From the NCBI GenBank assembly GCA_963835065.1, contig CAWIEK010000044.1, positions 128,001-192,000 on the forward strand: 64,000 nucleotides of DNA, given 5' to 3'. Each line of letters begins with the position of its first letter. The first letter of the stretch is position 1. Of the stretch, positions 2,783-63,247 are shown piece after piece. The DNA comes from an uncultured Chthonomonadaceae bacterium (GTDB taxonomy: Bacteria; Armatimonadota; Chthonomonadetes; Chthonomonadales; Chthonomonadaceae). A program made the translations under genes and the position numbers. The notes below the pieces were generated by a model that was not told where the DNA came from, did no database searches, and saw only the letters and a program-made list of their open reading frames with translations.

Positions 2783-2863
2783 AAGGGATAAGGGGTAAGG
2801 GGTAGGGGATAAGTAAATGCAGTTTCTTATCCCTTATCCCTTACCACTTACCACTTACTCACT
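2783..2863. repeat. Inverted tandem-heptamer element (GGGRTAA / TTAYCMC)
   Basis: aagggataaggggtaaggggtaggggataag ... cttatcccttatcccttaccacttaccactt fills the whole intergenic gap. Confidence 0.85.
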
Positions 2864-3481
2864 ATGCAAGTCGCCTGGAACTTTTACCGTTTTGATTATG
2901 ATCGTTTTCTGGCAATGCGCCCGTTGTTGCGCGCGGCGACAACCCCGGAAGCGTTTGCCGCGTTTGGGCAAGGCGCGGAAATCGAGGCCATCGCGGACGC
3001 GGTTGCGGAACAATCGCTGACGCTGGAAGAAGCGCGTAACGCGCTGGTATTGTGCCTGTGCTGTGAGGGCGATGCGCTTCCCGTAGACGCTTCCTTTCCC
3101 CGGTTTGTGGCGGCCCTGGCGCGGCGCAAGGGGGCCGAGGAGACGGCGGAAACATTGGGCGCGTTAATCAGTGGCGGCAAGCCCGTCGAGGCGTGGATGG
3201 CAGCGGACGATGGCATTGCCGGCCTGCTCACGCCTGCGGAAACCCTGCAGATTTGCGCGGCCTATCTGCCCCTGCTGTCGCGGAAGGGGCGCAGTTTGTC
3301 GCAGGTGGGCCGTAAACCCGGCAGGCGAACCCGGCGGGGCGGACTAGTCGGCGCATGTATCAGTTTTGTACGCCATTTGCTGAACCTCGGCCCGCTTCCC
3401 GATGATCTACTGGCGCTTCTGGGCAGCCTGCTGAAAGAAGCGCACTCCAATAAGCAGGGTATCGCCGTAACAATTGCCTGA
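2864..3481 (+). CDS. Hypothetical protein
   Basis: 205-aa ORF with host-like codon usage. Confidence 0.75.
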   Translation: MQVAWNFYRFDYDRFLAMRPLLRAATTPEAFAAFGQGAEIEAIADAVAEQSLTLEEARNALVLCLCCEGDALPVDASFPRFVAALARRKGAEETAETLGALISGGKPVEAWMAADDGIAGLLTPAETLQICAAYLPLLSRKGRSLSQVGRKPGRRTRRGGLVGACISFVRHLLNLGPLPDDLLALLGSLLKEAHSNKQGIAVTIA

Positions 3482-3575
3482 CCGTCCGCCAGGATTGCGA
3501 AAACGCGCGCAGTGAAATTTTTGTAACGCTTCGGCTGTTGCGTTCGTCCATTGCATCAAACATCCCGAAATTGCG

Positions 3576-3752
3576 GGTATTCAGGTGTTCGGTGTTCAGG
3601 TATTCGGAAAATTCTCGGCACGAATACAGCGCTTTGCAGGACAGCCTCTATATGCTGTACGCAACTTGGAGCAGGAATATGCCAAATGATCCAACCACCG
3701 AACACCGAATACCTGAATACCTGAATACCTGAACACCGAACACCGAACACCG
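3576..3752. repeat. Inverted tandem 7/8-mer element (GTGTTCG, GTATTCAG / CGAACAC, CTGAATAC)
   Basis: Arms 3576-3607 and 3696-3752 around a spacer of about 88 bp. Confidence 0.85.
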
Positions 3753-3919
3753 ATTTCGGCAGGAGAGTGAACAATTTTGGCGGCACAGGCGTCCTAGTTA
3801 AAGAATGTATGCGCCATCTTTATGTATAAATCGTCCTCTCCTGCAGAAAATACTGCTGTAAAAGTTGGTTTTCATAACCGACAATAGGGGCGTCCTAGAT
3901 TAGGAAAGGAGACCCTGCC

Positions 3920-4147
3920 ATGCTCAGTTGCGTGGAAGAGTGCGTTTTGCGGCTCACAAAAGAAGAAGCCCTGGGTCTGCTGGAACTCGCCATGTCGTGT
4001 CCGCTCGACTTATCTGCCGACCAACGCGCGGCTATCGTGAAACTGGGAGAGTTTTGCCGGGAGTGCCTGCGCGCCGACATTGCCGAAGCCGCCACTCTCG
4101 AAGCCCACACTGCGAACAATTCTCTGCCGACGGCCTTTGCCGCCTGA
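3920..4147 (+). CDS. Small hypothetical protein
   Basis: Strong RBS GAAAGGAG before ATG; followed by a hairpin and T-run at 4187-4232. Confidence 0.65.
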   Translation: MLSCVEECVLRLTKEEALGLLELAMSCPLDLSADQRAAIVKLGEFCRECLRADIAEAATLEAHTANNSLPTAFAA

Positions 4148-4347
4148 TTTCGGCAAGCGCCCTTATATTAACGTCTCTTAATCCACCCCCCTCCTGACTG
4201 TGCGCCTTGCAGGAGAGGGGCTATTTGTTTTTGTCTCTTTTGGCTGCGCATTTTCACGTGTGAGTCGTAAGCAAAGTACAGGCGTTTCTTGCAGGCGAGT
4301 TGAATTTTTGCAGGAGAGATGAAAGGGAAACAGGAAGGAGCAACAGC

Positions 4348-7005: not shown

Positions 7006-7326
7006 CGTTGTTTCTCCTGACAAAATAGTTTGAAGTCTAACTATTTTACGCCAGTAAACCAGCATGAGTTGCACAGGCAAGTCCACATCTATAAATTTTT
7101 CTGCCTGTATCGGCAGAATGTCATGGAAGGAGTTCGCCACTTCCAGGCCGAACCTACGTATCATATTGAAGATACGCAGTGGGTACGCCGGTCGTTGACG
7201 CAGGAAACGGGAGAAACCTTTCCGGGCTTCCGTGATCTGAATGAGCGCTGAACAATCTCCACGACAGTCCTTATTTCGTCGCAACTAACCATCGGCAATT
7301 TCACTACCGGACACATTTATCCGGGC

Positions 7327-7447
7327 ATTGAAAATACCCGTCTGAACGGCGTTCCGCCGAGCGTCCTACGGACGCAATGCACTTCTATAGAAGCATTTAC
7401 GTCCGTAGGACGTTCAGCCGCAGGCTATTCAAACGGTGGTTTTCAAT
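7327..7447. repeat. REP-doublet (REPIN/MITE-like) element, copy 1
   Basis: Outer attgaaaa/ttttcaat; inner hairpins cgtcctacggacg and cgtccgtaggacg; shares ggcgttccgccga and gccgcaggctat with 28565-28663. Confidence 0.7.
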
Positions 7448-7455
7448 CACCGGCA

Positions 7456-18643: not shown

Positions 18644-18681
18644 CATGGGATAAACTAAGCCATCGCGCCTGTATTTAGCCC

Positions 18682-20796
18682 ATGCCCGACACCCAACACT
18701 CAACACCCAATACCCTGCCCCGCCTGGACGAGTCGCTGCGTCTGCTGAAAGGCGTGGGGCAGCAAGCCGCGACCGCGCTGGAAAAACTGAACCTGCGCAC
18801 GGTTGGCGACCTGCTGCGCCATATACCGCGCCGGTGGGAGGATCGCACCAATTTTCGCAGCGTCAGTGATGTGCAGTCGGGCGAGTTTGTGACCGTGTGC
18901 GGCATTGTGATTGCAGTCAGCACCACGTACCCGAAGCCGAAAATGGCGATTACCAAAGTGCTGATTGACGATGACGGCGCGGCTTTAACGCTGACGTGGT
19001 TCAATCAGCCCTACATCGAGCGGACATTCGGGGCGTTGAAACTGTCGCGCAAGCCGATTGTCGTGTATGGACAGGCTAAGCGCTCGGGCTGGACGGTGGA
19101 AATAGCGAACCCGGAATGGGAAGAATTGGGCGAGGATGGCGACGCGCTGGGCGCGAACCGCATCGTTCCCATTTATCCGGCAACCGAAGGCGTCCGGCAA
19201 ATCCGCCTGCGCAAGCTGGTGTGGGAAGCGCTGCAAAATTACAGCGATGCCATTGACGAAACCCTGCCTGCGGACGTGATTTTGCGGCACAATCTGGTGG
19301 GCGCGCGTCATGCCGCCCGCAACATCCATTTTCCCGACAGCGACGCGGATTTACTCGCCTCGCGCCGACGGCTGATTTTTGAAGAGTTTTTCCTGCTGCA
19401 AGTGCTGCTCGCCGTCCGGCGCAAAGCCAACGCCCACGAAACACACGGCATCCGCTTTGCCATTGCGCCCGACAAGTTAAAAGAAGACCTGGCGCAAATC
19501 GTGCCGTTTCAATTGACCAACGCGCAGCAGCGCTCCATCGGCGAAATCGTCCGGGACGTGACGAGCGGTCACGCGATGAACCGGCTCTTGCAGGGCGATG
19601 TGGGCAGCGGCAAAACAATGGTCGCGCTCGCGGCTATTCTCATGGCGGTAGAAAACGGCTATCAGGCCGCGCTCATGGCTCCAACGGAAATTCTGGCGCA
19701 GCAGCATGCCATTGTCCTGCGCCGCTTGCTGGAACCGATTGGACTTGCCGTAGAACTATCCATCGGCAGCCAGACCGTTAAGGAAAAGCGCGAAGTACGG
19801 GAACGCTTGCTCGGCGGGCAGTCCCGAATCGCGGTCGGCACACACGCTCTAATACAGGAAGGCGTTGAATTCGCCAAACTCGGACTCGTCATCATTGACG
19901 AACAGCACCGTTTTGGCGTCTTGCAAAGACAGGCCCTTGCCCGCAAGGGACAGCGCCCGCATATTCTCGTAATGACGGCCACGCCCATCCCGCGAACGCT
20001 GACGCTGACGCTGTACGGCGACCTGGACGTATCCATTCTGGACGAACTGCCGCCGGGACGCAAGCCGATTACGACGCACTGGAAAGCGCAGGAGAAACGT
20101 AATCAAGTATACGCGGCAGCACAAAGATTGCTCAATGAAGGCCGGCAGGTGTATGTCGTCTGCCCGCTCGTGGAAGAAAGCGAAAAGTTACAGGCTAAAA
20201 GCGCCACGCAACTCAGCGAGCATATCGCCAACGAAGTGTTTCCGCAGTACCGCGTCGGATTATTGCACGGGCAGATGAAGCCGGACGAAAAAGACGCGAT
20301 CATGGCGAAGTTCAAAAAGCACGAACTGGATATTCTCGTGTCCACAACCGTGATTGAAGTCGGCATTGACGTGCCCAACGCCAGCGTGATTATCATTGAA
20401 GACGCGGACAGATTCGGATTGGCGCAGTTGCATCAGTTGCGGGGGCGCGTCGGGCGCGGGCAACACGCCAGTTTTTGCATTTTAATGGCCGAACCGAAAA
20501 CCGAAGACGGACGCGCCCGTATGGAAGTAATGACCGCCACGCAGGACGGCTTCAAAATCTCCGAAGAGGACTTGAAGCTGCGCGGGCCGGGCGAGTTCTA
20601 TGGGACTCGGCAATCCGGCCTGCCGGAACTCTATATCGCCGACATCGTGCGCGACATGGACATCCTGACGGAAACGCGGGAAACCGCCTTCGCTCTCGTC
20701 GAGTCCGACCCAAAACTGCTAAAGCCGGAAAACCAGCCCTTGCGCCGCGCCTTAGAACGCGCTAAAGTCGGCTTTGACCTGATAAATGTAAGCTGA
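18682..20796 (+). CDS. recG: ATP-dependent DNA helicase RecG
   Basis: LQGDVGSGKT, DEQH, MTATPIPRT, QLRGRVGRG. Confidence 0.98.
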   Translation: MPDTQHSTPNTLPRLDESLRLLKGVGQQAATALEKLNLRTVGDLLRHIPRRWEDRTNFRSVSDVQSGEFVTVCGIVIAVSTTYPKPKMAITKVLIDDDGAALTLTWFNQPYIERTFGALKLSRKPIVVYGQAKRSGWTVEIANPEWEELGEDGDALGANRIVPIYPATEGVRQIRLRKLVWEALQNYSDAIDETLPADVILRHNLVGARHAARNIHFPDSDADLLASRRRLIFEEFFLLQVLLAVRRKANAHETHGIRFAIAPDKLKEDLAQIVPFQLTNAQQRSIGEIVRDVTSGHAMNRLLQGDVGSGKTMVALAAILMAVENGYQAALMAPTEILAQQHAIVLRRLLEPIGLAVELSIGSQTVKEKREVRERLLGGQSRIAVGTHALIQEGVEFAKLGLVIIDEQHRFGVLQRQALARKGQRPHILVMTATPIPRTLTLTLYGDLDVSILDELPPGRKPITTHWKAQEKRNQVYAAAQRLLNEGRQVYVVCPLVEESEKLQAKSATQLSEHIANEVFPQYRVGLLHGQMKPDEKDAIMAKFKKHELDILVSTTVIEVGIDVPNASVIIIEDADRFGLAQLHQLRGRVGRGQHASFCILMAEPKTEDGRARMEVMTATQDGFKISEEDLKLRGPGEFYGTRQSGLPELYIADIVRDMDILTETRETAFALVESDPKLLKPENQPLRRALERAKVGFDLINVS

Positions 20797-21374: not shown

Positions 21375-22091
21375 ATGGACGCGCCCCGGTTCGCCGCGCC
21401 GATGCACGGCGGCGTGGATATTCTGAAATTATTGACGGAACTGGAAGATCAGGTGGAAAACACGCGCAAGGGGCCGTTCAATAGCCTGCTTGGGTTTGAT
21501 GACGACAAGTTCCACATGACCATTATGAAGATTCGCGCCAACCTGCCCGAAGAAATGAAGCGGGCGTCCAAGCTGGCGCGCGATCAGGAGCGCATCGTCG
21601 AAGAAACGCTGGAAAGTTCGGAGCGCATCAAAGAGGAAGCGCGGCAGGCAGCCCTCGCCGACGTGGAGCGGGGCAAAAAAGAAGCCGCCGCCCTGCGCGA
21701 TCAGGGTCAACAGCAAGCCGAACAGGAACGGCAGGAAGCGCAAAGCGAAGCTCGCCGCCTGACCGCCGAAGCCAATACCGCCGTTGATCTCGCCCGGCAA
21801 GCCGCCGAGCGCGAGTCGCAGGAAGTGCAGGCGCAGGCACGGGAACACAGCCGCCAAACGTTGGCGGAAGCGCAGGCGCAGGCCGCGCATCTCATAGCCG
21901 ACCACCCCATCACGCAGCAGGCGCAGGCAAGGGCGCAGGATGTGCAGTTACGCGCCGAACACGAAGCGCAGGCCGTCCGGCGCGGCGCCGACGATTACGC
22001 CCGCGACGTGCTGATGAACTTAGAGAACGTCCTGAGCAAAGCCACGCTGCAAGTGCAACGCGGACGGGAAATGCTGGAGAAACCACGATAA
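21375..22091 (+). CDS. Coiled-coil protein (DivIVA / ATPase subunit b-like) between coaD and yceD
   Basis: DILKLLTELED..IRANLPEE..GADDYARDVL; start uncertain, may lie further upstream. Confidence 0.8.
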   Translation: MDAPRFAAPMHGGVDILKLLTELEDQVENTRKGPFNSLLGFDDDKFHMTIMKIRANLPEEMKRASKLARDQERIVEETLESSERIKEEARQAALADVERGKKEAAALRDQGQQQAEQERQEAQSEARRLTAEANTAVDLARQAAERESQEVQAQAREHSRQTLAEAQAQAAHLIADHPITQQAQARAQDVQLRAEHEAQAVRRGADDYARDVLMNLENVLSKATLQVQRGREMLEKPR

Positions 22092-22210
22092 GGCATCAGG
22101 CATCAGGCATTAGGCATTAGGACATTCCCTCTTGTGCCGATCCAACACTTACTTTTGTAGTAACGCATTCTGGGATTGTTCTAATGCCTAATGCCTGATG
22201 CCTGATGCCT
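22091..22210. repeat. Inverted tandem-heptamer element (GGCATYA)
   Basis: Perfect 30-bp arms 22091-22120 and 22181-22210 with C/T unit variants mirrored. Confidence 0.92.
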
Positions 22211-22224: not shown

Positions 22225-22795
22225 ATGCGCCTTGACATAACCGAAATACTGGGCGAGGTGGGCAAGAACCTGCCTTATGATATACAGGAACCGCCCCTCG
22301 TAGATGAAGATGTGGAATGTACGCGCCCGATTGAAGGGCGTATTACGTTCAACAACACGGGCGGGCTATTGCTGGTGACGGGCAAGGCCAATACCAACGT
22401 TGCCCTGCCGTGCAGCCGGTGCAATGAATACTTTGAGCAGCCTCTCGCGCTGGAAATTGACGAGTCGTTTGAACTGCGTCATTCCGGCGTCGGGACCGCG
22501 CACCACGCAAAACGTGGAAGTAATCGAAGAAGACGAAAGCCCGGTTGCGGGTAAACTGTTTGATGGACACGTCTTCGACCTGACCGAAATGCTGCGCCAA
22601 TACATTCTGTTGGACGAACCGACCCAGCCGCTGCCGCCCACGCAGACGGATGGCCGGTGCGCCCACTGTCACCGCCGCCCCGAAGAGGTGCTTCCCATAG
22701 CACCCGACGCGGACGCGGCACTGGATCCCACTGCGCCAACGCCCATCAACCCGGCGTTCGCCAAATTGAGTGAATTACTGAACAAGGAGGAGTAG
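22225..22795 (+). CDS. yceD: YceD/DUF177 family protein, frameshift near 22495
   Basis: CSRC motif in the first frame; FDLTEMLRQYILL..CAHC..INPAFAKL in the second; directly upstream of rpmF. Confidence 0.88.
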
Positions 22796-22911
22796 GCATT
22801 AGGCATTAGGCATTAGGCATTAGGAAGTTGCCATATAGCCTTGTGCCTATTTTAAGCGGCGAAGACGAGACAGGCATTTTCCTAATGCCTAATGCCTAAT
22901 GCCTAATGCCT
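22794..22911. repeat. Inverted tandem-heptamer element (GGCATTA)
   Basis: Perfect 33-bp arms 22794-22826 and 22879-22911. Confidence 0.92.
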
Positions 22912-24254: not shown

Positions 24255-24366
24255 GGGGTTCAGGTTTCAGGTGTCAGGGAAGCGCTACTCAAGCGCTTTC
24301 TTCAAGTAATATGCCTGATATACAAATAGTGACTTCCTGACACCTGATACCTGATACCTGAAACCT
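24255..24366. repeat. Inverted tandem-heptamer element (GGTDTCA)
   Basis: ggttcaggtttcaggtgtcagg ... cctgacacctgatacctgatacctgaaacct. Confidence 0.88.
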
Positions 24367-27637: not shown

Positions 27638-27766
27638 TTAACCACGGGGGACACGGGGAACACGAGAAGAAAAGAAGATAAAGAAGAGGAAAAGGGAGCT
27701 TTTTGCATCGTCAACTGAACACGGCTGCCTCCTTTCCTCCCCGTGTTCTCCTTTTCCCCTGGTTAA
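27638..27766. repeat. Degenerate inverted 9/10-mer element (ACACGGGGA family)
   Basis: ttaaccacgggggacacggggaacacg ... ccccgtgttctccttttcccctggttaa. Confidence 0.75.
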
Positions 27767-30353: not shown

Positions 30354-30430
30354 GTGGTTGATAGTTGATAGTTGATAGTTCGTAGTTCCCGAATGTCTAT
30401 CAACTACGAACTATCAACTATCAACTACCA
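30354..30430. repeat. Inverted tandem-heptamer element (GTTGATA)
   Basis: gttgatagttgatagttgatagttcgtagtt ... aactacgaactatcaactatcaact; the variant unit is mirrored. Confidence 0.9.
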
Positions 30431-30512
30431 AACTGACGCTTGCTTTCGCTCCAGATTGAGGAGCCATGAAGAGAGTTTGCACCCGGCGGCAGCGCCGGGT
30501 GAGGATTGGATT

Positions 30513-34678: not shown

Positions 34679-34687
34679 GTAGGCAGA

Positions 34688-34719
34688 AGTGATAAGGGAT
34701 AAGTGGTAAGTGGTAAGGG
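34688..34719. repeat. Lone heptamer arm (GKGRTAA)
   Basis: agtgataagggataagtggtaagtggtaaggg; same family as 2783-2863, no partner arm seen. Confidence 0.7.
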
Positions 34720-34767
34720 ATCGGATTACAGGTTCGGCATACTCGCGCCGGAATTTAGGAAAAGCGC

Positions 34768-36092: not shown

Positions 36093-36154
36093 AATGATGA
36101 GTGATGAGTGATGAGTGATGAACGGAACTTATTCATCACTCATCATTCAGCATT
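36093..36154. repeat. Inverted tandem-heptamer element (GTGATGA)
   Basis: aatgatgagtgatgagtgatgagtgatgaa ... ttcatcactcatcattcagcatt. Confidence 0.88.
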
Positions 36155-38400: not shown

Positions 38401-40388
38401 GAATGATTGGAAAATACGAAAAGCTGGACGTGCTGGGTTCGGGCGTGTCCGGGATTGTCTACCTTGCCAAAGACACCCTGCTCAACAAGCAGGTCGCGCT
38501 GAAGGAAGTGGACGTGCAGGCCGGGGATTTGCGCCGCTTTTTGGAAGAAGCGCGCGTGATGGATCGGCTGCGCCATCCCAACATCGTGCGCGTCAACAAT
38601 GTGGATCGCATCGAAGGCAAAGTTGTCATTGACATGGAGTACGTGCGCGGGCAGAACCTGCAGGAACTGCTGCGGGGCGAGGGGCCGCTTCCCATTGGCC
38701 GCTCGCTTGATATTGTGGCGCAGGTGCTGGACGCGCTGCACTACGCGCACCAGATGCAGACGGTGCATCGGGACATCAAGCCCGCCAACATTCTCATTGG
38801 GCGTGATGGGCAGGTGAAACTCGTGGACTTCGGGCTGGCCGAAATCCTTGCCACCAATGCGTATGCGGGCGGCGCGGGCACGTATGCGTACATGGCTCCC
38901 GAAGATTTTGCCGAAGATGACCGCTCGGATCATCAGTCCGATATATGGGCGGTGGGCGTCACGCTGTACGAGATGCTTACGCATCAGCGCCCGTTTACGG
39001 TCGCCAAAGTGAAAGACCCGTTTGCGTGGAAGCGCGTTCTTGAATCCGAATCGCCCACGCCGTTAAGCGAGTACCTGCCGGATGCCCCCCCGATGCTGCA
39101 AGCCATTCTGGAACGCGCCCTGGCCCGCGACAAGCAGCAGCGCTACCCCACAGCGGGCGAGTTCCGCGACGATTTAATCCGCTTTCAGCAGGGGCAGCAG
39201 GTTGCCTCGCAAACTCTGCGCCAAGCCCACAGCCGACGCAACCCCCTGCTGCGCCGCAACAATGCCGCGCCCGCTTCCCCTGCCAATACGCCTCTGCCCG
39301 GTTTTTCCGGCGCGTTGCCCGGCAACCCTCTGAACTCGCCCTCCGGCTCCGCGCGCCCTCCTGCAAACATGCCCGCCACTCCCATAAGCAGCACAGGTCA
39401 ACCCCTGCCCTGGTGGGAACGGGGTGAAGAAGGGATAAGGGAGGGAACAGGGAACAGGGAACAGGGAACAGAAGATAGTGGCCTATCAACTATCAACTAT
39501 CAACTACCAACTACTGAGCGCATGGTGGCGGATGTGAATCAGCCGAGTGCGAACAACAAGGCGCAGGCGAGTGGAGCGTCTGCGGAGCGCAAGGCTCGGC
39601 TGCCGTTTGCGCGGCGCGACTCGACGATGCGCCTGACGGTGGAACCGGGGCGCGTGGATTTTGGGGCGGTGCGCAAGGGCGAACTGCCGTCCGTGAAGAT
39701 TACGGCGCGGGTCACGGGCGGGGATGGCATTGTGGAGGGGCGCGTGGTTCATTCCTCGGACTGGCTGACCGTGCATCCGCCCGCCATCAACCGTGCCAAA
39801 CAATCGCTGACCTTGACCGCGCACTCTGCCCGCGTATGGGAAACGGGTGAGTTCCACGAAACCGTTCGCATTGAAACGAACGCGGGAACGGTAGACGTGC
39901 CGACGCGACTTGTCGTGCTTCCCGCGCGGCCTTCGTTTATGCAGGCCGCTGTTTGGTTTGTGCCGCTGTTCGGCGCGGCCTTATTGCCCGCGCTGGCAAT
40001 CGCCTTTGCGGGCGGCAACGGGCATCACGGCGCGGACCTTCTGGCGCGCTACACGCCGAGCGCGGCAACCGTTTCGGGCGCGTTGGGACTGATGCTGCTG
40101 CTGGTCAGCATTGCCGCCGACATCGGTATTGCGGAGCGTATCGCCTGCGGCGTGATGATCGCGGTCATGGGAGCCGTATTGGGCATGTCGAGCGGCCATG
40201 CATCGAATGGTTCCGTCCACCGCGCCGGCATAGAAAGCGCGTTCGTCCTGGGCGGCTTCATGGGCGGCATACTATTGCTGCAACTGCTGCACCTGCGCAA
40301 ATGGAAATTATGGGCGTTCGTGGTCGCCGCGCTCGGCCTCGCGTTCGGCGGCGCATTGCTGCAAATGCTGGGGGTGAGTGTCGGCTGA
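38391..40388 (+). CDS. Hanks-type Ser/Thr protein kinase with an Ig-like (BACON-like) domain and C-terminal TM helices
   Basis: LGSGVSG, VALK, HRDIKPAN, DFG, YMAPE, SDIWAVG. Confidence 0.96.
   Translation: MPLGMIGKYEKLDVLGSGVSGIVYLAKDTLLNKQVALKEVDVQAGDLRRFLEEARVMDRLRHPNIVRVNNVDRIEGKVVIDMEYVRGQNLQELLRGEGPLPIGRSLDIVAQVLDALHYAHQMQTVHRDIKPANILIGRDGQVKLVDFGLAEILATNAYAGGAGTYAYMAPEDFAEDDRSDHQSDIWAVGVTLYEMLTHQRPFTVAKVKDPFAWKRVLESESPTPLSEYLPDAPPMLQAILERALARDKQQRYPTAGEFRDDLIRFQQGQQVASQTLRQAHSRRNPLLRRNNAAPASPANTPLPGFSGALPGNPLNSPSGSARPPANMPATPISSTGQPLPWWERGEEGIREGTGNREQGTEDSGLSTINYQLPTTERMVADVNQPSANNKAQASGASAERKARLPFARRDSTMRLTVEPGRVDFGAVRKGELPSVKITARVTGGDGIVEGRVVHSSDWLTVHPPAINRAKQSLTLTAHSARVWETGEFHETVRIETNAGTVDVPTRLVVLPARPSFMQAAVWFVPLFGAALLPALAIAFAGGNGHHGADLLARYTPSAATVSGALGLMLLLVSIAADIGIAERIACGVMIAVMGAVLGMSSGHASNGSVHRAGIESAFVLGGFMGGILLLQLLHLRKWKLWAFVVAALGLAFGGALLQMLGVSVG
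39442..39515. repeat. Two non-matching heptamer arms inside the kinase CDS
   Basis: (GGGAACA)x4 at 39442-39471 and (CTATCAA)x3-CTACCAA at 39483-39515. Confidence 0.88.
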
Positions 40389-41261: not shown

Positions 41262-41555
41262 ATGACGGCCTTTGATTGGGATGCGGAACTTACGGACGAG
41301 CGGCGTGACGCCTTGATTGACCGCCTGGCGCAGCAAATTCAGGCGCGGCGCATGAACCTACCCGCCATTTTGTTTTTAGAGATGCACAAGCCGCTTGCGT
41401 TTCTGACCGGGCAGGGATTGCTGCTGAGTTCCGGCTTTCTCGCGCCTCTCTTCGGCCCGCAAAACGTGCAGCAGTACGCCCGCCTGTTTGAATCCCGTGA
41501 CAACATAGAGTTGCTGATTCGGAGGATAGAGGAGGAGGTAGACGGTAGAAGGTAG
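41262..41555 (+). CDS. Small hypothetical protein
   Basis: GGAG RBS; PAILFLEMHKPLAFL..FESRDNIELLIRRIE. Confidence 0.85.
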   Translation: MTAFDWDAELTDERRDALIDRLAQQIQARRMNLPAILFLEMHKPLAFLTGQGLLLSSGFLAPLFGPQNVQQYARLFESRDNIELLIRRIEEEVDGRR

Positions 41556-41667
41556 ACGGTAGACGGCAGCAAATGCACTGCTTCCACCCTATGATTTCTA
41601 CAAGGCTATGAGCAAGCAGGTATGTCTACTGTCTACTGTCTACCGTCTACCGTCTACCTTCTACTCC
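41536..41667. repeat. Inverted tandem-heptamer element (GACGGTA)
   Basis: aggtagacggtagaaggtagacggtagacgg ... gtctactgtctactgtctaccgtctaccgtctaccttctac; the left arm encodes the last codons and stop of the upstream gene. Confidence 0.9.
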
Positions 41668-42499: not shown

Positions 42500-43339
42500 T
42501 TGCTCGCTCAATTTTTTCATCCCGTAACAGGCTCGTCATGGTACGCCTACATCGTGGGCGCGCTGCTCGCGTCAGGCATGCTGCTTGGCCTGCTTACCCT
42601 CGTGCCGCAGAATTTGCGCCGGTATGTGATACAGGGCGCGACGTTTTTGGGCGGGCTGTACTGGGCGCTGGAGTTTTTTCTGCCCACGCATCCCATGCCG
42701 ACGTCGCAAAGCCCGAAAGCGGTGGGCAATTTTCTGACGCCGTATGTTGTGCCGTTCGGCAACGTCGCCAGTATTGTGGCCGCGTTTGCTGTCGGGTTGG
42801 GCATCATCAATCTGGTGCAGGTACACGGCAAGCGCATTACCAAAGGCGGCTCGAATTCTTTCAACAGCGCGGTCTTTTTCGCAGGATTGATCGTGATGTT
42901 TACGGTCAGCATCCTGCGTAAAGCCCACCCGAACGCCATTAACAAGAATCTGAACACGCTGGTTTTCGATGGCGGCCTGCAAACCATGGACGCCACGATG
43001 TTTTCCATTGTGGCCTTTTACATTGTGTCCGCGTCCTACCGCGCCTTCCGGGTCCGCTCCGTAGAGGCCACCCTGCTGCTCGTCACGGCAACCCTCGTGA
43101 TGCTCGGACAGATCGCCATTGGAACCTGGCTTACGCACACCCTGCCCGAAGCCAACGCGGGGCCGATGGGATGGACGCACAACCTGCGCCTTGAAATCAT
43201 CCGCGACTGGATTTTAACCAAAGCCAACGCCCCCGCAAGCCGCGCTATCGCCTTCGGCCTGGGCATCGGTGGCCTGGCCGTCGCCCTGCGCATCTGGCTC
43301 GGCCTGGAACGGGGCAGTTATTTCGACAACAATGGATAG
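42500..43339 (+). CDS. Multi-pass membrane protein of unknown function
   Basis: About 7 hydrophobic segments; MFSIVAFYIVSASYRAFRVRSVEA..LRIWLGLER. Confidence 0.88.
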   Translation: MLAQFFHPVTGSSWYAYIVGALLASGMLLGLLTLVPQNLRRYVIQGATFLGGLYWALEFFLPTHPMPTSQSPKAVGNFLTPYVVPFGNVASIVAAFAVGLGIINLVQVHGKRITKGGSNSFNSAVFFAGLIVMFTVSILRKAHPNAINKNLNTLVFDGGLQTMDATMFSIVAFYIVSASYRAFRVRSVEATLLLVTATLVMLGQIAIGTWLTHTLPEANAGPMGWTHNLRLEIIRDWILTKANAPASRAIAFGLGIGGLAVALRIWLGLERGSYFDNNG

Positions 43340-43441
43340 GTTTCAGGTTGCAGGTTTCAGGTTTCAGGGGCAATGCTGCTATGCGTAACATAACTAAAAT
43401 GCAGCGTCTTCCTGATACCTGATACCTGCAACCTGAAACCT
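43338..43441. repeat. Inverted tandem-heptamer element (GGTTTCA)
   Basis: Arms 43338-43368 and 43411-43441, 29/31 complementary; the variant GGTTGCA is mirrored in register. Confidence 0.9.
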
Positions 43442-44336: not shown

Positions 44337-45125
44337 ATGACATCGTTTTCACCCTGGCTTGCCGCCCATATTTCCACACTCAGCGCCTGGTTCGGCGCAA
44401 TCTGTACGCTCGGCCTGTACTCGGTTTTGTACAAGGAAAACAAGCTGTATCGGATGTTCGAGCATCTGTTTTTGGGCATGGCGACCGGCTACATGATCGC
44501 GCTGGCGTGGAACGACGTGCTGCTGGTCAAATGGTGGCAGCCGATGCATGATAAGGGCGAGTGGTGGTACATTTTCGCGCTCCTGCCCGGCCTAATGTAC
44601 TATTTCATCTACTCGCGCAAAAACAACTGGATTGCGCGCCTCGTTGTCGGCTTCTTTTTGGGCGTCGCGTCCGGGCAGGCGTTCAAAGCCTTTGTCAACG
44701 ACACATGGCCGCAAATCGCCACGTCGTTCAAGCCCTTGATTCCGCATCCTGCTATATCCGCAACGTCCGATCATCCCGCCGTGAAAGCCCTGACGCTCCC
44801 GGACGCCCTCAACAACCTGCTGTTCATGTTCATTCTGCTGTGCGTGTTGAGCTACTTCTTCTTTTCCTTTGAGCAAAAGCATCCCGTCCTGAACGGCTCC
44901 GCCAAACTGGGACGCTGGCTGCTGATGTTCACGTTCGGCGCGATTTTCGGCTCGACCATCATGGCCCGTCTCGCCCTGCTCATAGACCGCATGGACTTTC
45001 TGCTCAACGACTTCGGCCCCCACATCGGCGGACCGGGCGTGATGTTCGGCGTCCTCGCGCTGCTGACGGTCATAGTCCTCCTCCTCGTCACCCGCCAAAA
45101 ACCAACCACGGAAGAACCGGAGTAA
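44337..45125 (+). CDS. Multi-pass membrane protein of unknown function
   Basis: LYSVLYKENKLYRMFEHLFLG..GRWLLMFTFGAIFGSTIMARL. Confidence 0.88.
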   Translation: MTSFSPWLAAHISTLSAWFGAICTLGLYSVLYKENKLYRMFEHLFLGMATGYMIALAWNDVLLVKWWQPMHDKGEWWYIFALLPGLMYYFIYSRKNNWIARLVVGFFLGVASGQAFKAFVNDTWPQIATSFKPLIPHPAISATSDHPAVKALTLPDALNNLLFMFILLCVLSYFFFSFEQKHPVLNGSAKLGRWLLMFTFGAIFGSTIMARLALLIDRMDFLLNDFGPHIGGPGVMFGVLALLTVIVLLLVTRQKPTTEEPE

Positions 45126-45327
45126 ACCACGGGGAACACGGGGACACGGGGAGGAGAGGGGTAGGACAATAGGGGATACTTACCCATTATAAAACAGAGG
45201 ACATGGATCCACAAGGATACAAGATGTAATCAGCCTTCTCCGTATTTATATGGTTCATCCGTTTTGTGTGGTTCTCCTTGTCCTTCCCCTCTCCTCCCCG
45301 TGTCCCCGTGTTCCCCGTGGTTTACTC
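45120..45327. repeat. Inverted 9/10-mer element (ACACGGGGA family) with 42-bp perfect arms
   Basis: 45120-45161 is the exact reverse complement of 45286-45327. Confidence 0.92.
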
Positions 45328-52744: not shown

Positions 52745-52881
52745 TTGTCTTGAACCATGATTAAGCATGATCAGGCTGATTAACATGATTTTAGGGAGTG
52801 AGATTATGCGGCGGACGAGAGCGTGAGCTGCACAGCATCATGACAATCATCAAAATCATGCCTAATCATGGTTCAAGACAA
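52745..52881. repeat. Inverted 9/10-mer element (CATGATT family)
   Basis: Perfect 19-bp termini TTGTCTTGAACCATGATTA / TAATCATGGTTCAAGACAA followed by degenerate units. Confidence 0.85.
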
Positions 52882-54252: not shown

Positions 54253-54607
54253 ACCACCCGCTGCGCTAGAGACACAGAGACACAGAGAGGGAACACAGAG
54301 AAAGAAAAGAAGAGGAGAGAAGGAACCGCGAAACACACGAAATAAACGAAAAAAGACCAAAAGAAGAAAGAAGAAAGAACATGGGCAAATCCGAAGACGC
54401 CGCGCATGTTTAGAACAAGCAGGCTTCTCTTCTCTAGTTTGTAATCCTGTTTAATCCTTCTAATCCCATTAATCCCGTCTATTTCTTTTGTCTTTCCTTT
54501 TTTCGTCTTGGTTCGTGTGTTTCGCGGTTCCCTATCTCCCCTCTTTTCTTCTTTTCTTCCTCTGTGTTCCCTCTCTGTGCCTCTGTGTCTCTAGCGCAGC
54601 GGGTGGT
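54253..54607. repeat. Nested long inverted-repeat element (ACACAGAG > ACACACGAA > AATCC units)
   Basis: Perfect 27-bp termini; imperfect arms of about 110-125 bp. Confidence 0.9.
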
Positions 54608-55115: not shown

Positions 55116-55301
55116 ATTCGACTCCCTTGCGCAGCGTTATTCGTGTCAAGGAGTATAGCACACGCCCGCCTGCCTTGTCCTCCCCTCCTTATCCTCTCCT
55201 GACTTATCCCTTTTTATCCCTTCCTCCTATCACTTGTTCGGAACCTTTTCGGCGTTTGCGCGTTGCTTAAAGAACGACTTTACGTTTGAAGGAGCAATGT
55301 T

Positions 55302-56317: not shown

Positions 56318-56573
56318 GCGCCGTTTCCTGCACTTTCTCGACGCCGTACAGATAGTGGTCAATGTTTGCCGAATAATCAGACGGGAACCCTTCCAGATTG
56401 GCCGCTAAAGCAGCGTCCAGAAAGGAATGGGGCTTGCCTGTTTTGCCCAACTGTGGGTCGGCTTCAGGCAGCGACTCTATGATGATGCGAATGCGCGTGT
56501 TCGCTTCCAGTTGTACCGGTTCGTTCGGATGAATTACGGAACCGTCGTAAACGGCTTCAAGTGTTTGTGTCAT
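56307..56573 (-). CDS. vapB: Antitoxin (AF2212/DUF104-like)
   Basis: TLEAVYDGSVIHP..DYSANIDHYLYG; overlaps vapC; GGAGG RBS. Confidence 0.88.
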   Translation of the reverse strand: MTQTLEAVYDGSVIHPNEPVQLEANTRIRIIIESLPEADPQLGKTGKPHSFLDAALAANLEGFPSDYSANIDHYLYGVEKVQETAHDE

Positions 56574-56635
56574 GGTATTTCCTCCATTCTCATTGTAACA
56601 TAGCCGTCAAGATTTTCACCAGTCCTCAGCAAAAT

Positions 56636-56922
56636 AACCCGCCGTCCGGCATCGTGACCGAACGGCGGGTTGCTGTGTGTCGGACAAACGGGAACAGGCG
56701 TTACGCGATCAGGTCGCGTATGGGTGTTCCTTTTTCGGTAATGGAAATGGGACGGCCTACCGGAGTCATGAACGACTTGGCGGGGTTCATGCCAAGCAGG
56801 GTGGCGACGGTGGCGAAGAAGTCGGCGGTTTGTACCGGCTTGTCGGCTACTTTTGTGCCGTCCGCGTCCGTTGCGCCGTATGCCTGTCCGCCCCGAACGC
56901 CGCCGCCCGCCAAAACCGCGCT
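56636..56922 (-). pseudogene. Displaced 3' end of the DUF1501 gene plus its terminator (direct repeat of 59209-59493)
   Basis: The 222-nt coding part differs from 59272-59493 at 10 positions; hairpin AACCCGCCG...CGGCGGGTT is present in both copies. Confidence 0.92.
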
Positions 56923-58556: not shown

Positions 58557-58823
58557 ATGGCCGTGTTGAACATCTCTTTGCCGGAGAAGATGAAAGATTA
58601 CGTTGAGGAGAGGCTGACTGAGGGAAGCTACAGCAGCACCAGCGAGTTCTTCCGTGATCTAATCAGGGAAGACCAGAAGCGCAGGGCGCAACAGCATCTG
58701 GAAGCGTTATTGCTGCAAGGGCTGGAAAGCGGAACGCCTATAGAAGTGACGGACGAGTATATTCAGCAAAAGCGGGCTGCATTGCTGGCGCGTATGGAAA
58801 AGGAAGGCAAGCGTGGCGGCTAA
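58557..58823 (+). CDS. parD: ParD family (RHH) antitoxin
   Basis: LNISLPE..YSSTSEFFRDLIRED..LLLQGLESG. Confidence 0.92.
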   Translation: MAVLNISLPEKMKDYVEERLTEGSYSSTSEFFRDLIREDQKRRAQQHLEALLLQGLESGTPIEVTDEYIQQKRAALLARMEKEGKRGG

Positions 58824-59148
58824 ACGTGTCAAGCTGTTGCCCGAAGCCGAACAGGACGTGGATGAGGAAAGCGTGTATCTTGCTCAGGAAGCCAGCGCTG
58901 AAGTCGGAATCCGCTTTTACGACGCCGCACATGAAAGTTTCCGCGAACTTCTGGATATGCCGGGTATAGGTAAGGTAAAGGAAGTCAATAATCCGAAACT
59001 TTCTGACATTCGCCAATGGCAGGTGTCCGGGTTTGAGAACTACCTGATTTTCTATCGTGTGTTTCCCGGCGGCATCGAAATCATGCGCGTACTGCATGGA
59101 GCTAGAAACATTGACCACATTCTTGAACGGGAAACCGGTGAAGAGTAA
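58813..59148 (+). CDS. parE: ParE/RelE family toxin
   Basis: AEQD..MPGIG..YLIFYR..IMRVLHGARNI. Confidence 0.92.
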   Translation: MAAKRVKLLPEAEQDVDEESVYLAQEASAEVGIRFYDAAHESFRELLDMPGIGKVKEVNNPKLSDIRQWQVSGFENYLIFYRVFPGGIEIMRVLHGARNIDHILERETGEE

Positions 59149-60627: not shown

Positions 60628-60640
60628 GGAGGTCTCCAAA

Positions 60641-60762
60641 AAGTAGTCAGAAGTGAGTAGTCAGTAGTCAGTAGAAATGCCTGTCTACTCAGAGCCTTGT
60701 ATATTCGCCAAAGTCATGAGCAGAACGGCTACTGACTACTGACTACTCACTTCTGACTACTT
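60641..60762. repeat. Inverted tandem-heptamer element (GTCAGTA)
   Basis: Perfect 34-bp arms 60641-60674 and 60729-60762, including mirrored variant units. Confidence 0.93.
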
Positions 60763-60764
60763 CC

Positions 60765-62972
60765 TTAATGATTAAACGTGAACTCGCTGGAGTTCAGGAG
60801 CGCCCAAAACATATCTTCGTAGGCTTGCGCTTCCGGCGTCTGGCTGATGGCAGAAGCGCGGGGCGCGAAGCGGGCGAGCGGGTCATAGCCGTTGTTGCTG
60901 CCCTTTTTGCGGTTTTGTACGGCCTGCGCCAGCGCCTTGCGGTCGGCGGGAGTGGCGGCAAGCGTGTTGTTATTTCCTGACGCAGCCGGGGCGTTATTGT
61001 TCACTCCAGCGCCATTGTTATTTCCATTGTTGGCGTTAGAATTGTTATTGAAGCCGTTGTTGAAGCGGGCGGCGCGGCGTCCGGCGAACGCGGGGCCGGC
61101 GGGCGGCGCGTTGGTTTCGGAGGCGGTCACGACGGGACGGGGCGCGTGAATGAAGTCCAGCCAGCGGGTGGTTTCCTTGCTTGTCGGCTTGCGCGAAAGC
61201 GTCCGCAGGTACAACTCCTCGATTTTGGCCTCGTCGGTGTCATTGCTTGCCAGCACATCGGCCAGCGCCGTGCCGGGAATGGGAGTCGCGCCCCGGTTGA
61301 CGAGATTGCCGTTGAGCAGCATCAACGCCTGCGGGATCGTGCCCTCGAAATCCTTTTGCTCGAACTCTTCATCCACGTCGAACAGGAACGTAAACTGTCG
61401 CGACATGGCGTACTTGATTTGATCCAGCCTGCCGCCCGCAACTCGTTCCAGCAATGGCCCCATGTTGGTTGCTTCCACGAGCGAGTCCATCAATTCGTCC
61501 GGCCCCATCGGTTTCAGGCGGAAGCGTGCCCACAGTTTGTTGTCCAGATCGGCTTTTTTGGCGGGCGTGGACGACAACTGATAAACTTGCGTGGCGCAAA
61601 TCTCTCGAATCAGATGTTTCAGGTCGTAATCGTTGGCGACGAAATCCGCCGCCAGTTTGTCCAGCAGGGCGGGCGCGGTGACGGGATTGGACGGGCGAAT
61701 ATCGTCAATCGGCTCAATGAAGCCCCGGCCTAAAAAGTGGTTCCACATCCGGTTCACAATGGCTTTGGCGAACCAGGCGTTGTTGGGCGAGGTCATCCAT
61801 TCGGCAAGCGAAGCGCGGCGGTTGAACGAACCTGTAAAGTCGGTTCCATCCAGCGCGGTGGGCGCGGACGCGGCATACAGCGCGGCATCGTTGGCCTGTT
61901 TGAGACGCGGGTTCAGGCGGGCAGGAGGGCGGCGCGTTTCCACAAGATTTACTTGCCGCAGCTGCCCTTTTAGCTGCGCGGCTGTCATGGTCGGGTCTAC
62001 CGGAACCGGGCGGGCGTTGATAAAGCAGGCCGTGAAGCGCCGGAAATCGTCCTGCTTCCACTTTTCGGTCTTGTGGTCATGGCACTGTGCGCACTGTATC
62101 TGCACACCCAAAAACAGTTTGGAAGCCGTGCCGGACAGGTCTTCCGGCTTGCCCCGGAACCGCAATGTCCAGTTGGTCGCGCCGTTGACGGGTGCGGGCA
62201 GCGCGGCAGTCGTTACCTGCGCGCCGTTTCCGCCCGACATGGTGGCGTCCATCATCTTGTCGTCGCCGGACGCCATTTTATCCCCGGCAACCGTTCCGCC
62301 CGCGCCATTCGGGGGTGTGACTCGGCCCAACACTCTGCCACCCGCTTGCGCGCCTGCGCCCGCCTGCTGATTTTGCGCAATGCCGCCCTGCCCCTGCGCC
62401 TGATTGCGTTTTTGCATCAGCAATCCGGCCATGTTCGGGTTTGCGCCGTTGGGCTGGGGAACGCCGAGCGCTTTGGCGTAACTGCCGCCCTCGCTGTTGA
62501 CGCCCTGCGCGGTAATCAGGTCGTACACGAACTTGTTCCAGTGGACGTTCTGCTGAAACTCGCCGCGCAGCCATTGCTTAAAAGCGGAGCGATCCACAAT
62601 CTGCGCGTTGTCCGTGCGTCCCTTGCCCATTAAAATGCCGTCCCAGTAGGCTGTCCAGTTGTCGGCGTACTTGCCGCTTGCCAGCAGGGCGTCTACCGCG
62701 CGGGCGCGCTTGTCGGGATTGGTATCGGCCAGAAACGCGCGCATGGTTGCGGAGGGGGGAATCACGCCCACAATGTCGAGATATACGCGCCGCAAAAACC
62801 GGGCATCGTCCACAGCGGCAGCCGGAACAATGCCTTCCTTGTTCCACTCGGCGCGGATCATCTGGTCAATCTGCGCCGGGGTCAAAGCGGTTTTGCTTTG
62901 CGCCCGCGCCACGCTGTACTGGCAAAGGCTCAGGCCGGCGAACAGCCCGGCTGCCGCATAACGAAGTCTCAT
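60765..62972 (-). CDS. DUF1549 + DUF1553 (PSD1) domain protein
   Basis: FLRRVYLDIVG, QIQCAQCHDH, VNRMWNHFLGRG, PQALMLLNG, WALLNSSEF.FNH; signal peptide. Confidence 0.92.
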   Translation of the reverse strand: MRLRYAAAGLFAGLSLCQYSVARAQSKTALTPAQIDQMIRAEWNKEGIVPAAAVDDARFLRRVYLDIVGVIPPSATMRAFLADTNPDKRARAVDALLASGKYADNWTAYWDGILMGKGRTDNAQIVDRSAFKQWLRGEFQQNVHWNKFVYDLITAQGVNSEGGSYAKALGVPQPNGANPNMAGLLMQKRNQAQGQGGIAQNQQAGAGAQAGGRVLGRVTPPNGAGGTVAGDKMASGDDKMMDATMSGGNGAQVTTAALPAPVNGATNWTLRFRGKPEDLSGTASKLFLGVQIQCAQCHDHKTEKWKQDDFRRFTACFINARPVPVDPTMTAAQLKGQLRQVNLVETRRPPARLNPRLKQANDAALYAASAPTALDGTDFTGSFNRRASLAEWMTSPNNAWFAKAIVNRMWNHFLGRGFIEPIDDIRPSNPVTAPALLDKLAADFVANDYDLKHLIREICATQVYQLSSTPAKKADLDNKLWARFRLKPMGPDELMDSLVEATNMGPLLERVAGGRLDQIKYAMSRQFTFLFDVDEEFEQKDFEGTIPQALMLLNGNLVNRGATPIPGTALADVLASNDTDEAKIEELYLRTLSRKPTSKETTRWLDFIHAPRPVVTASETNAPPAGPAFAGRRAARFNNGFNNNSNANNGNNNGAGVNNNAPAASGNNNTLAATPADRKALAQAVQNRKKGSNNGYDPLARFAPRASAISQTPEAQAYEDMFWALLNSSEFTFNH

Positions 62973-63127
62973 GCTGAAATTCCTTTTCAAGAAGCTGCGC
63001 GTCAAAACTATGCAAGGGAAAAGACGAAAACGAAACAAGTGAAATCCTGCTTTCATGGACGCAATTTCGGGACAGGAGTTCACGCGAACAATGACTTTCC
63101 TAATGATTTTCGGGATTTATTTACGCC

Positions 63128-63183
63128 TTGACAACCTCTTCCACACAGATTATACTATAAAATAGTTTTCAAAGCGCTTTGAA
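63128..63183 (+). promoter_or_regulatory. sigma70 promoter with a downstream palindromic operator
   Basis: TTGACA-17-TATACT; TTCAAAGCGCTTTGAA at 63168-63183. Confidence 0.7.
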
Positions 63184-63247
63184 CTACAAAGGGCTTGGCT
63201 GCGTATAAAGGGAGAGGGAAAAGGAAAAAGGAAAAAGGGAAAAGTAC

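Follow-up and report, generated by a model that had tools for sequence, protein, structure and literature searches.

Hairpins and tandem arrays built from seven-base units have been described in several bacterial groups. According to the available part of PMC4990558, Coxiella burnetii has an intervening sequence (IVS) that occupies 23S rRNA helix 45 and combines a 28-bp terminal stem, GACAGAT heptamers, an open reading frame (ORF) of the family PF05635 and excision by RNase III. Paired arrays of GGGAATC in Xanthomonas and of GGGGA(C/T)T in Nostoc were attributed to G-quadruplexes, as far as the excerpt of the source extends (Rehm et al. 2015, PMC4692102). TAACTGA repeats are found in Beggiatoaceae, Cyanobacteria and Bacteroidetes, and the accessible sections of their description state that 'no mechanism is evident' (MacGregor 2015, PMC4679880). 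Here we analyze a stretch of 64,000 nucleotides (the window; C44:128001–192000) from an uncultured Chthonomonadaceae bacterium, whose assembly (G000; 71 contigs, 8.0 Mb, rated 92% complete) is called the source genome below, and compare it with the sister genome G002 (7.5 Mb, median protein identity 85%) and further relatives. The window contains a series of elements in which two inverted arms, each a short tandem array, enclose a loop.

On balance, we are inclined to regard these hairpins as gene-less, non-autonomous copies of two one-gene cassettes that would move by replacement. Their anatomy, the arms they share with gene-carrying copies, the fixed arm length, the turnover and the missing target duplications are matters of observation; elements are gained, lost and exchanged for one another both between genes and at the tips of rRNA helices. 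By comparison with described systems, they are a variant of the IVS kind working like a transposase-free system of MITEs (miniature inverted-repeat transposable elements). No paper linking PF05635 or GxxExxY genes to intergenic heptamer hairpins was found in searches of the open-access literature.

The source genome possesses three genes encoding PF05635 four-helix-bundle proteins, all three passing the profile cut-off, and three encoding GxxExxY proteins. All six lie between inverted arms in protein operons, so gene-enclosing copies exist, and the flanks that the original prediction had tentatively named for both gene types hold for 6/6 genes here. The PF05635 gene on contig C8 has the GTCAGTA arms of the window element at 60641, the one on C25 has the GGGAACA arms seen at 39442, and the one on C33 is flanked by an 8-base unit. 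Arms of the C39 GxxExxY gene match the window elements at 27638 and 45120 (the arm type of 27638 also encloses a GxxExxY gene in L146). The C19 GxxExxY gene has a left arm matching the left end of 54253 and a right arm formed by another GxxExxY-type unit; its two arms are unlike each other (score 11, below the cut-off of 14). In the C8 and C33 cassettes, the stretch from arm to start codon is too short for a promoter.

The same arrangement recurs far beyond this genus. Inverted flanks accompany 56/74 PF05635 loci in GTDB genomes (0/67 control pairs taken further out), 47/63 on viral contigs (0/53 controls) and 55/67 GxxExxY loci in metagenomes (0/28 controls); another 6, 1 and 13 loci, respectively, had flanks too short to score. 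Each scan gave about 600 matches, of which the 80 with the best scores were taken, so the sample leans to relatives of the queries, and the GxxExxY set was drawn with motifs of one subfamily. Judging by record titles, the PF05635 loci span Bacteroidota, Acidobacteriota, Planctomycetota, Chloroflexota, Proteobacteria, archaea and others. The array period goes with the protein, being 7 in 36/47 upstream PF05635 arrays and in 1/28 GxxExxY arrays, which have periods of 8–9. There are two families, one with heptamer arms and a four-helix-bundle protein, the other with 8–9-base cores and a GxxExxY protein. The 8–10-mer pairs of the window, originally taken for variants of the heptamer elements, belong to this separate second family.

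Elements of the source genome also reach rRNA. Both of its 23S genes measure 3223–3224 nt, compared with 2844 in the related genome G005, and its complete 16S gene measures 1696 nt (1686–1704 nt in G000, G001 and G002); inserts of this size would bias the length of 16S amplicons in this genus. The rRNA operon (L383:3803–10115, contig C51) holds five gene-less elements, two in 16S (pairs with the units GGCATTA and GATGAAT) and three in 23S (pairs with GTCAGTA and GGGAACA, plus an insert that has a single arm). Only one clear arm is left at the 23S site near position 300, and a GATTTTT/GATTGCC arm is located between the tRNAs of the rRNA spacer. In 23S, around G005 position 1838, a heptamer element of the source genome replaces a four-base loop; the tetraloop is retained in G002, G005 and G014, and the insert of G001 begins with a GxxExxY-type end. 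The 23S site near 1200, which we take to be helix 45, contains three different units in G000, G002 and G001 and is empty in G005, G013 and G014, and the 16S site near 1435 is empty in G001, G005 and G013.

The rRNA copies show three marks of an IVS, namely a helix-tip site, an inverted-repeat stem and sporadic presence among relatives. Window copies lie in protein operons and not in rRNA. The rRNA and window copies, 60–390 bp in length, enclose no PF05635 ORF, the three PF05635 cassettes being located in protein operons; an RNase III gene is present. With the C. burnetii IVS, as the available part of its description presents it, the elements share the long stem, the 5′ heptamers, the rRNA helix tip and the patchy spread, and that ORF-bearing IVS has the anatomy of a loaded cassette. 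In contrast to it, the source genome has >500 copies outside rRNA (in genes and mRNA spacers), mostly ORF-less and with varied units, and a second (GxxExxY) family using the same sites.

Seven-base periodicity dominates the genome-wide census. Under array-scan thresholds that scale with period, the source genome contains 1971 period-7 arrays versus 238, 61, 261 and 3 for periods 5, 6, 8 and 9, and the other periods from 5 to 14 give at most 261 arrays each. A pattern of five AG steps at 7-base spacing occurs 2139 times versus 13 for an aperiodic control. A looser threshold yields 2321 heptamer arrays, 560 of which have an inverted partner downstream, an arrangement found by chance in 5/2000 random 250-bp stretches. 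The merged set comprises 556 paired heptamer elements with a median arm of 31 bp and loops of about 10–20 or 45–65 bp. Another ~217 inverted elements have 8–10-base periods, a set that mixes both families. Identical elements also occur in longer duplications (at least 500 bp; C27/C29, C49/C51 and C37:156187/159017) that represent rRNA operons, repeats or assembly redundancy, so a few element counts are doubled. Heptamer load differs >100-fold among related genomes. In a survey of 30 relatives, the five-AG pattern was abundant in 9/13 with a PF05635 gene versus 4/17 without (P 0.025), where abundant means at least 30 hits (control at most 23), the threshold was set post hoc and kin are not independent.

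More than 50 different heptamer units occur in the source genome, the commonest being GGCATTA and GTTGATA. The purine- or G-rich arm comes first in 559/560 paired elements, which extends to the whole genome a regularity originally noted for the window. The rule G-N5-R proposed together with it captures the AG or GG step in 519/560 first-arm units and fails for types such as AATGATG and GATTTTC; a purine pair (AG, AA, GG or GA) every seven bases, at which the arms begin, describes the units better. We refer to this pair as the anchor.

Variant bases are copied onto the opposite arm in 560/767 cases (73%), as had been claimed from a few window elements, when re-pairing the arms of same-unit elements 200 times gives a mean of 41% and a maximum of 44% (518/556 elements with ungapped arms, unit families of at least four members). 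Arm covariation therefore exceeds the re-pairing null. On the transcribed strand, 12532/13160 arm positions are Watson–Crick pairs, and sense-strand mismatches comprise 169 G-U and 211 A-C, a ratio slightly opposite to that expected from RNA selection (P 0.035). Selection for RNA pairing was rejected on this ground, G-U being not enriched over A-C. Because the mismatches lack a G-U bias, arm symmetry looks copied at the DNA level, and of the two possibilities in the original prediction, a mobile or templated element is favoured over co-selection of an RNA structure. Non-pairing arms exist as well: the source genome has 208 chimeric arm pairs, 133 of them inside genes, versus 43/556 for matched pairs.

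Orthologous sites vary in both presence and unit; together with the gene-enclosing copies and the arm covariation, this runs counter to all three outcomes that would have refuted the original prediction. In the sister genome, the sites of 27638 (a 5-bp spacer there), 30354, 43338 and 60641 are empty, and those of 2783, 22091, 22794, 24255, 36093 and 45120 hold a different unit and loop. The heptamer counterparts are GGGATGA at 2783, GGGAGTA at 22091, GAGATAC at 22794 and GTGGCTA at 24255 (GGCAGTA in G011), with GTGAGA-type arms at 36093. Sites 20800 and 44320 are empty in the source genome but filled in relatives. The 27638 site carries a different 9-mer element in G001; the 45120 site carries other GxxExxY-family elements in G001 and G002 and is empty in G011; the 43338 site is empty in G001, G002, G011 and G013; and the 39442 site in G002 has another lone arm. 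The element at 52745 predates the split of the two genomes, being nearly identical in G002.

Across 292 orthologous co-directional spacers, 68 are filled in both genomes, 45 in the source genome only, 24 in the sister genome only and 155 in neither (odds ratio of co-occupancy 9.8). The comparison covered 1.58 Mb of G002, and the counts are approximate because some 'empty' calls are gene-calling errors (e.g., 22091). Where both genomes have heptamer arrays, the unit is shared in 5/28 spacers and the loops are mostly unrelated. Whole elements have also been copied to unrelated loci, with loops 98%, 96% and 94% identical and identity ending at the arm ends; other high-identity loop pairs in the source genome are part of more extensive duplicated stretches. 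A loop core of 28 bases was found in five copies, two with GGCATCA arms and one each with GGGTGTC, GGGTGTT/C and (in G002) GGGATGA arms, and the arms are mirrored in every copy. For the start of the 60641 loop, 41 genome hits were counted, of which 24 carry GTCAGTA arms and one each GGCATCA, AGAAGAC and GACGGTA arms. A strict whole-loop search gave only 2 different-unit pairs among 388 loops, so a change of unit that leaves the loop intact does occur, though less often than full replacement. Target duplications of 2–8 bp were not above shuffled pairs for 424 elements at slacks of 0, 3 and 10. The missing duplication and the missing G-U bias together point to replacement at the DNA level, rather than to transposase insertion or selection for RNA pairing.

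The location of the elements relative to genes is equally regular; genes were called by a purpose-made hexamer caller, and start sites are approximate. The 556 heptamer elements comprise 424 in co-directional, 53 in convergent and 30 in divergent spacers, 43 in genes and 6 at contig ends, and background junctions number 4795, 873 and 874, respectively. Co-directional spacers are favoured (424/4795 versus 30/874 for divergent ones, P 4e-9). The left arm begins at or within the stop codon, which is TAG in 233/425 cases at elements versus 1198/4980 elsewhere. The right arm ends 11–20 bases 5′ of the next start codon in 176/424, leaving the ribosome-binding site (RBS) outside the stem. Two of the sites listed for the window, the lone arm at 18685 and the 39442 chimera, are located within ORFs. 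Arrays deep in genes have stop-free units in 501/531, and these 531 arrays are a source of low-complexity protein inserts. The same unit is more frequent among neighbours closer than 6 kb (about 0.20 versus 0.12) and within one transcription unit (52/233 versus 9/78, P 0.047); this sharing could stem from a common horizontal origin of operons. In a ribosomal-protein operon (G000:C49:676500–678600), almost every spacer has a paired element.

By length, perfect period-7 runs in the source genome give a saw-tooth whose peaks lie 2–5 bases beyond two, three and four units. The peak at 30–33 bp holds 165, 155, 104 and 122 runs (546 in total), and only 30 runs reach 35 bp or more. This saw-tooth, with its cliff at 35 bp, implies an arm of four full units plus a fifth anchor. 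The shape is the same in G002. An assembly artefact behind the 35-bp limit is unlikely, as G002 and imperfect arrays agree, though other genomes have longer arrays. Five anchors are also modal at PF05635 genes (33/84 arms in genomes, 43/72 on viral contigs), and the arm termini are not conserved in sequence. GxxExxY arms contain C-R-C-x-x-R-R cores after ACC, three in 60/110 arms and four in 4; chains of three and four cores number 362 and 8 in the source genome versus 42 and 1 after shuffling.

The protein encoded on C8 matches structure 2GSC (five chains) with an E-value of 1.5e-18, and the latter is described as a homopentamer in the portion of PMC4990558 at hand. The C8 protein also matches the Avd family NF033474 (E 5e-8; 33 bits, below the cut-off of 80). 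Avd, in the available text of its description, forms a homologous pentameric four-helix-bundle barrel binding RNA via five protomers, all of which contact an RNA stem-loop with flipped-out bases in crevices (bioRxiv 2023.10.23.563531, PMC10053308). Unlike in diversity-generating retroelements, a reverse transcriptase (RT) gene lies within 1.5 kb at 0/144 PF05635 loci, in a search aimed at RT alone and not at template and variable repeats. A four-copy model of the C8 protein scored 0.50 for self-association versus 0.00 for the best control (the mark used is reached by 20/30 solved pairs and 1/23 single chains, with 97% contact agreement and pLDDT of at least 83), and this score probably reflects likeness to 2GSC. 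By analogy, the five anchors may correspond to five PF05635 subunits, and for the GxxExxY protein three cores would predict a trimer.

The GxxExxY model (pLDDT 95) has a PD-(D/E)xK fold; its best fold match is Cas4 SSO0001 (Z 7.8, rmsd 3.3, 96 aligned residues), alongside other restriction-like folds. Residues D62, E72 and K74 are invariant in 17 sequences, as is a Q-xxx-Y motif. We can confidently predict a PD-(D/E)xK nuclease fold with intact catalytic residues, and a profile search of solved structures found no sequence relative. Lambda exonuclease, a ring, is among the weak fold matches, which is uninformative on the oligomer.

Taking these features together, we suggest that each arm is a putative docking array for a ring of the cassette protein, one anchor per subunit; docking of this kind would keep the spacing and the anchors constrained and leave the other five bases free. 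The element may move as a folded-back single strand of DNA and take the place of a few bases at short purine-pair matches (such as the AG of a TAG stop), of a hairpin tetraloop or of an older element. One arm could be re-copied from the other, so that a changed unit would reach both arms and the loop would be kept. Candidate sources of cutting and joining in the heptamer family are host recombination and the GxxExxY nuclease. Selection would then filter the sites, leaving the gap from stop codon to RBS, the tips of rRNA helices and stop-free arms in genes, and chimeras and lone arms might represent half-events or deletions between neighbours.

A bolder proposal, which we put forward tentatively and think rather doubtful, is that of a ring-counting, transposase-free class of elements in which a pentamer reads five anchors and a predicted GxxExxY trimer reads three cores, and from which the IVS, the heptamer excess of bacteria and Avd descend. 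If the ring-counting mechanism holds, it is categorically new. On the cassette reading itself, three long-standing questions merge into a single testable one: the origin of the IVS, the abundance of arrays of about four heptamers in bacteria and the role of PF05635 and GxxExxY proteins. The counts of five anchors and three cores give sharp biochemical predictions, and the source genome offers an unusually good test bed, with both cassettes, >500 gene-less copies, rRNA copies and a pair of sister genomes in which sites are empty or swapped. A compact, transposase-free insertion between stop codon and RBS that also adds low-complexity stretches to proteins would, if real, be a novel way for genomes to change and might serve as a tool.

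Several observations weigh against the cassette reading and its anchor count. Five anchors are not modal among 24 PF05635 arms from Chthonomonadales, some PF05635 genes of this order are flanked by arrays as long as 165 bp, and units of 8, 9 and 11 bases occur. We know of no catalytic site in this four-helix bundle, and neither RT, Y1 transposase nor the second cassette family was found within 1.5 kb of 224 cassette loci, using the enzymes of the source genome as queries. Three PF05635 genes stand against >50 units, and the assembly (92% complete) lacks a cognate gene for GGCATTA, the commonest unit along with GTTGATA, and for the latter as well. Four relatives have arrays yet no PF05635 hit, including the 97%-complete G001. 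Unit and protein similarity are uncorrelated overall (Spearman −0.06), only pairs of >60% identity sharing units, and variants common to a family explain 41 of the 73 points of mirroring. The idea that loops are deletion remnants of cassette genes was dropped, since blastn finds only self-overlaps; as no loop matches a cassette gene, it is the arms that suggest descent by internal deletion.

An alternative that we judge unlikely is that the cassettes are retro-mobile, with RNase III excising the hairpin, an Avd-like pentamer loading a host RT and the fold-back cDNA copying an arm. It would suit the Avd homology (in the available text of PMC10053308), the preference for transcribed, co-directional spacers, the commoner sharing of units within one transcription unit and the presence of RNase III and two RTs in the source genome, and PF05635 genes are co-directional with both neighbours in 32/51 genome loci. 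However, loops show no orientation bias relative to transcription (47 versus 41), no RT lies within 1.5 kb of the 224 cassette loci, the two RTs are located on other contigs in CRISPR-like and retron-like contexts, and viral cassettes are frequently antisense. The viral contigs (L316–L379) carry five-anchor four-helix-bundle cassettes that are antisense to both neighbours in 18/41 scored cases, unlike in genomes. One of the RT genes is found among what we presume, from translations, to be cas6-like, cas2-like and split cas1-like genes (G000:C49:679200–683500); the retron-like RT at C50:52482–53912 has a GTCAGTA element 5′ of it.

MITEs and the repetitive extragenic palindromes (REP) mobilized by REP-associated tyrosine transposases (RAYT) are short, high-copy, intergenic and bounded by inverted repeats, with a rarer gene-carrying partner that has the same repeats as its flanks. 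Window-type hairpins are likewise short, non-coding and numerous, with terminal inverted repeats and loop families, some loops contain unrelated repeats, and the source genome has four Y1 transposase hits; they could accordingly be ordinary repeats moved by a host transposase, with the small genes as loop passengers. We find this improbable. There is no target duplication, and the rRNA sites show tetraloop replacement instead. The genes found between matching arms code for PF05635 or GxxExxY proteins and for no recognised transposase (Y1 being the alternative checked), and 0/4 Y1 hits are flanked by heptamer arrays within 700 bp, three having different inverted flanks of their own. A passenger would not recur in 56/74 loci across phyla with a period tied to the protein family. 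In contrast to MITE and REP ends, the hairpin arms are tandem arrays of fixed unit count without a conserved terminal sequence. By the tests applied, the elements belong neither to these two classes nor to the diversity-generating retroelements.

Equally poor, in our estimate, are the prospects of domesticated regulation, whereby a ring protein, in the manner of TRAP, would bind the G-rich arm in mRNA, open the hairpin and tune translation coupling, termination or RNase III processing. The very stable hairpins, the right arms ending shortly before start codons and the reuse of the same spacers in two species are in line with it, and translational control has been proposed for TAACTGA repeats in the accessible sections of MacGregor 2015 (PMC4679880). 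According to the same sections, those repeats resemble the present arrays in forming sets of 2–6 heptamers 5′ of start codons, in occurring in ribosomal-protein operons, in horizontal spread and in three-frame stop codons that limit the sites of survival, but they are nearly all unpaired, and the proposed binders are S1, Csp and CsrA, not PF05635. Regulation is contradicted by the absence of a G-U preference on the transcribed strand, by essential operons that function with an empty site in the sister species, by the turnover of units and loops, by the 208 non-pairing chimeras (133 in genes) and by the copies within rRNA.

Polymerase slippage in place, with partners arising by template switching and the products kept as stabilising or terminating hairpins, would involve no mobile element at all. 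Slippage has been put forward as a cause of the heptamer excess in bacteria (cited in the available excerpt of PMC4692102), and the left arm frequently starts within the stop codon region or is similar to it. Against this stand an array length that stops at five anchors rather than decaying, the G-rich arm leading in 559/560 elements, the neutral ratio of G-U to A-C, the >100-fold difference in load between related genomes and the identical loops at unrelated loci, these whole-element copies already contradicting slippage; we regard the account as very improbable. Selection of G-quadruplex repeats for four G-tracts, as proposed in Xanthomonas and Nostoc on the basis of a four-unit preference and paired convergent arrays (PMC4692102, excerpt), has next to no chance of applying here, because 242/560 G arms lack GG (72 have GGG) and the length rule holds without a G-run, the median being 31 bp in both classes.

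The Xanthomonas and Nostoc arrays otherwise share much with the cassette-like hairpins, namely the preference for four units, convergent pairs (70 in Xcc), location near stops and starts and scarcity between divergent genes; in the excerpt of PMC4692102, they differ in having one unit per genome, compared with >50 in the source genome, and no link to a gene or mobile element. The short tandemly repeated repetitive (STRR) sequences of cyanobacteria are heptamer arrays scattered over intergenic DNA with a conserved unit. In the source genome, heptamer arrays are dispersed and their units are not conserved.

All 19 sites originally listed for the window were found where they had been placed, and the classes assigned to them are real (ten pairs of heptamer arms, four of 8–10-mer arms, four single arms and the 39442 chimera; Table 1). 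The element at 3576 is indeed paired, but its arms mix units of two lengths, so that it is not a plain heptamer pair. Mirroring at 22091 is 30/30 over the repeat part, as reported.

Table 1. Repeat elements and single arms in the window.
Position	Strand	Element	Evidence or comparison
2783..2863	.	Paired heptamer, GGGATAA/GGGGTAA, short loop	30/37 arm matches
3576..3753	.	Paired, mixed 7/8-base units GGTGTTC/GGTATTCA	Arm comparison
18685..18715	.	Lone C-rich heptamer arm CCCAACA, in frame at 5′ end of ORF 18682–20796	Present in G002 too
22091..22210	.	Paired heptamer GGCATCA/GGCATTA, begins at stop codon, variants mirrored	37/39
22794..22911	.	Paired heptamer GGCATTA, TAG stop is first anchor	Arm comparison
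24255..24366	.	Paired heptamer GGTTTCA/GGTGTCA/GGTATCA	Arm comparison
27638..27766	.	GxxExxY-type, three CACGGGG-like cores, 9-base spacing, right arm decayed	Arm comparison
30354..30431	.	Paired heptamer GTTGATA, mirrored TTCGTAG variant, 14-bp loop	29/30
34687..34721	.	Lone G-rich heptamer arm AAGTGAT/AAGGGAT	Absent in G002
36093..36154	.	Paired heptamer GTGATGA/AATGATG, short loop	Arm comparison
39442..39513	.	Chimera: G arm GGGAACA and C arm CTATCAA, non-folding	Inside Ser/Thr kinase ORF 38403–40388
41529..41666	.	Paired heptamer GACGGTA/GACAGTA	G002: related arms and loop start
43338..43441	.	Paired heptamer GGTTTCA, starts within TAG stop	29/31
45120..45327	.	GxxExxY-type, 50-bp arms	49/50
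52745..52881	.	9–10-mer element, CATGATT cores	Near-identical in G002
54253..54607	.	Nested GxxExxY-type: CACAGAG cores outer, CGCGAAA cores inner	97/103
55169..55222	.	Degenerate lone C-rich arm	Absent in G002
60641..60762	.	Paired heptamer GTCAGTA, unit as in arms of C8 four-helix-bundle gene	34/34
63215..63244	.	Lone G-rich arm AGGGAAA/AGGAAAA, just 5′ of ORF 63248	Repeat scan

Folding of five window elements gave z-scores of −9 to −14 for four of them, namely 30354 and three pairs folded on one or both strands, 22091 (−77.9 kcal/mol, z −14) among the latter, and of +1.25 for the chimera at 39442. Both arms of this chimera are stop-free and in frame, falling in a linker of the Ser/Thr kinase. 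The lone arm at 18685 lies at the N-terminus of what is presumably a RecG-like helicase. Three DNA sequencing runs compared with window positions 18000–37500 yielded only fragments of relatives, with single-contig hints of an empty 30354 site and of a shortened 34688 arm, which are not used as evidence.

A separate family of non-tandem palindromes is represented in the window at 7321–7453 and 28549–28678, with 33 blastn matches in ~20 places. On either side of a Y1 transposase gene (G000:C51:103107) lie inverted copies that match the arms of 28549, and we take palindromes and gene to form a REP/RAYT-like system. A partial Y1 hit (G000:C49:523763) is accompanied by inverted arrays of a ~19-base tandem unit, a third repeat-armed design. 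The gene for a TnpB-family RNA-guided nuclease (7656–8594, minus strand; NF040570, 224 bits) adjoins the 7321 palindrome.

An Rfam scan found no rRNA in the window, the sole hit being a weak partial tRNA match at 581–636 (32.7 bits). A GGAACC...GCGTT motif at 55220–55260, located 5′ of the ORF at 55302 and conserved in G001 and G002, resembles an extracytoplasmic function (ECF) sigma promoter. Small gene pairs resembling toxin-antitoxin systems occur at 25415–26661, 55898–56913 and 58557–59148; the reading frame at 58557–58823 matches the ParD antitoxin TIGR02606, and in a relative, one contig has 295 different bases in place of the 25415–26661 block.

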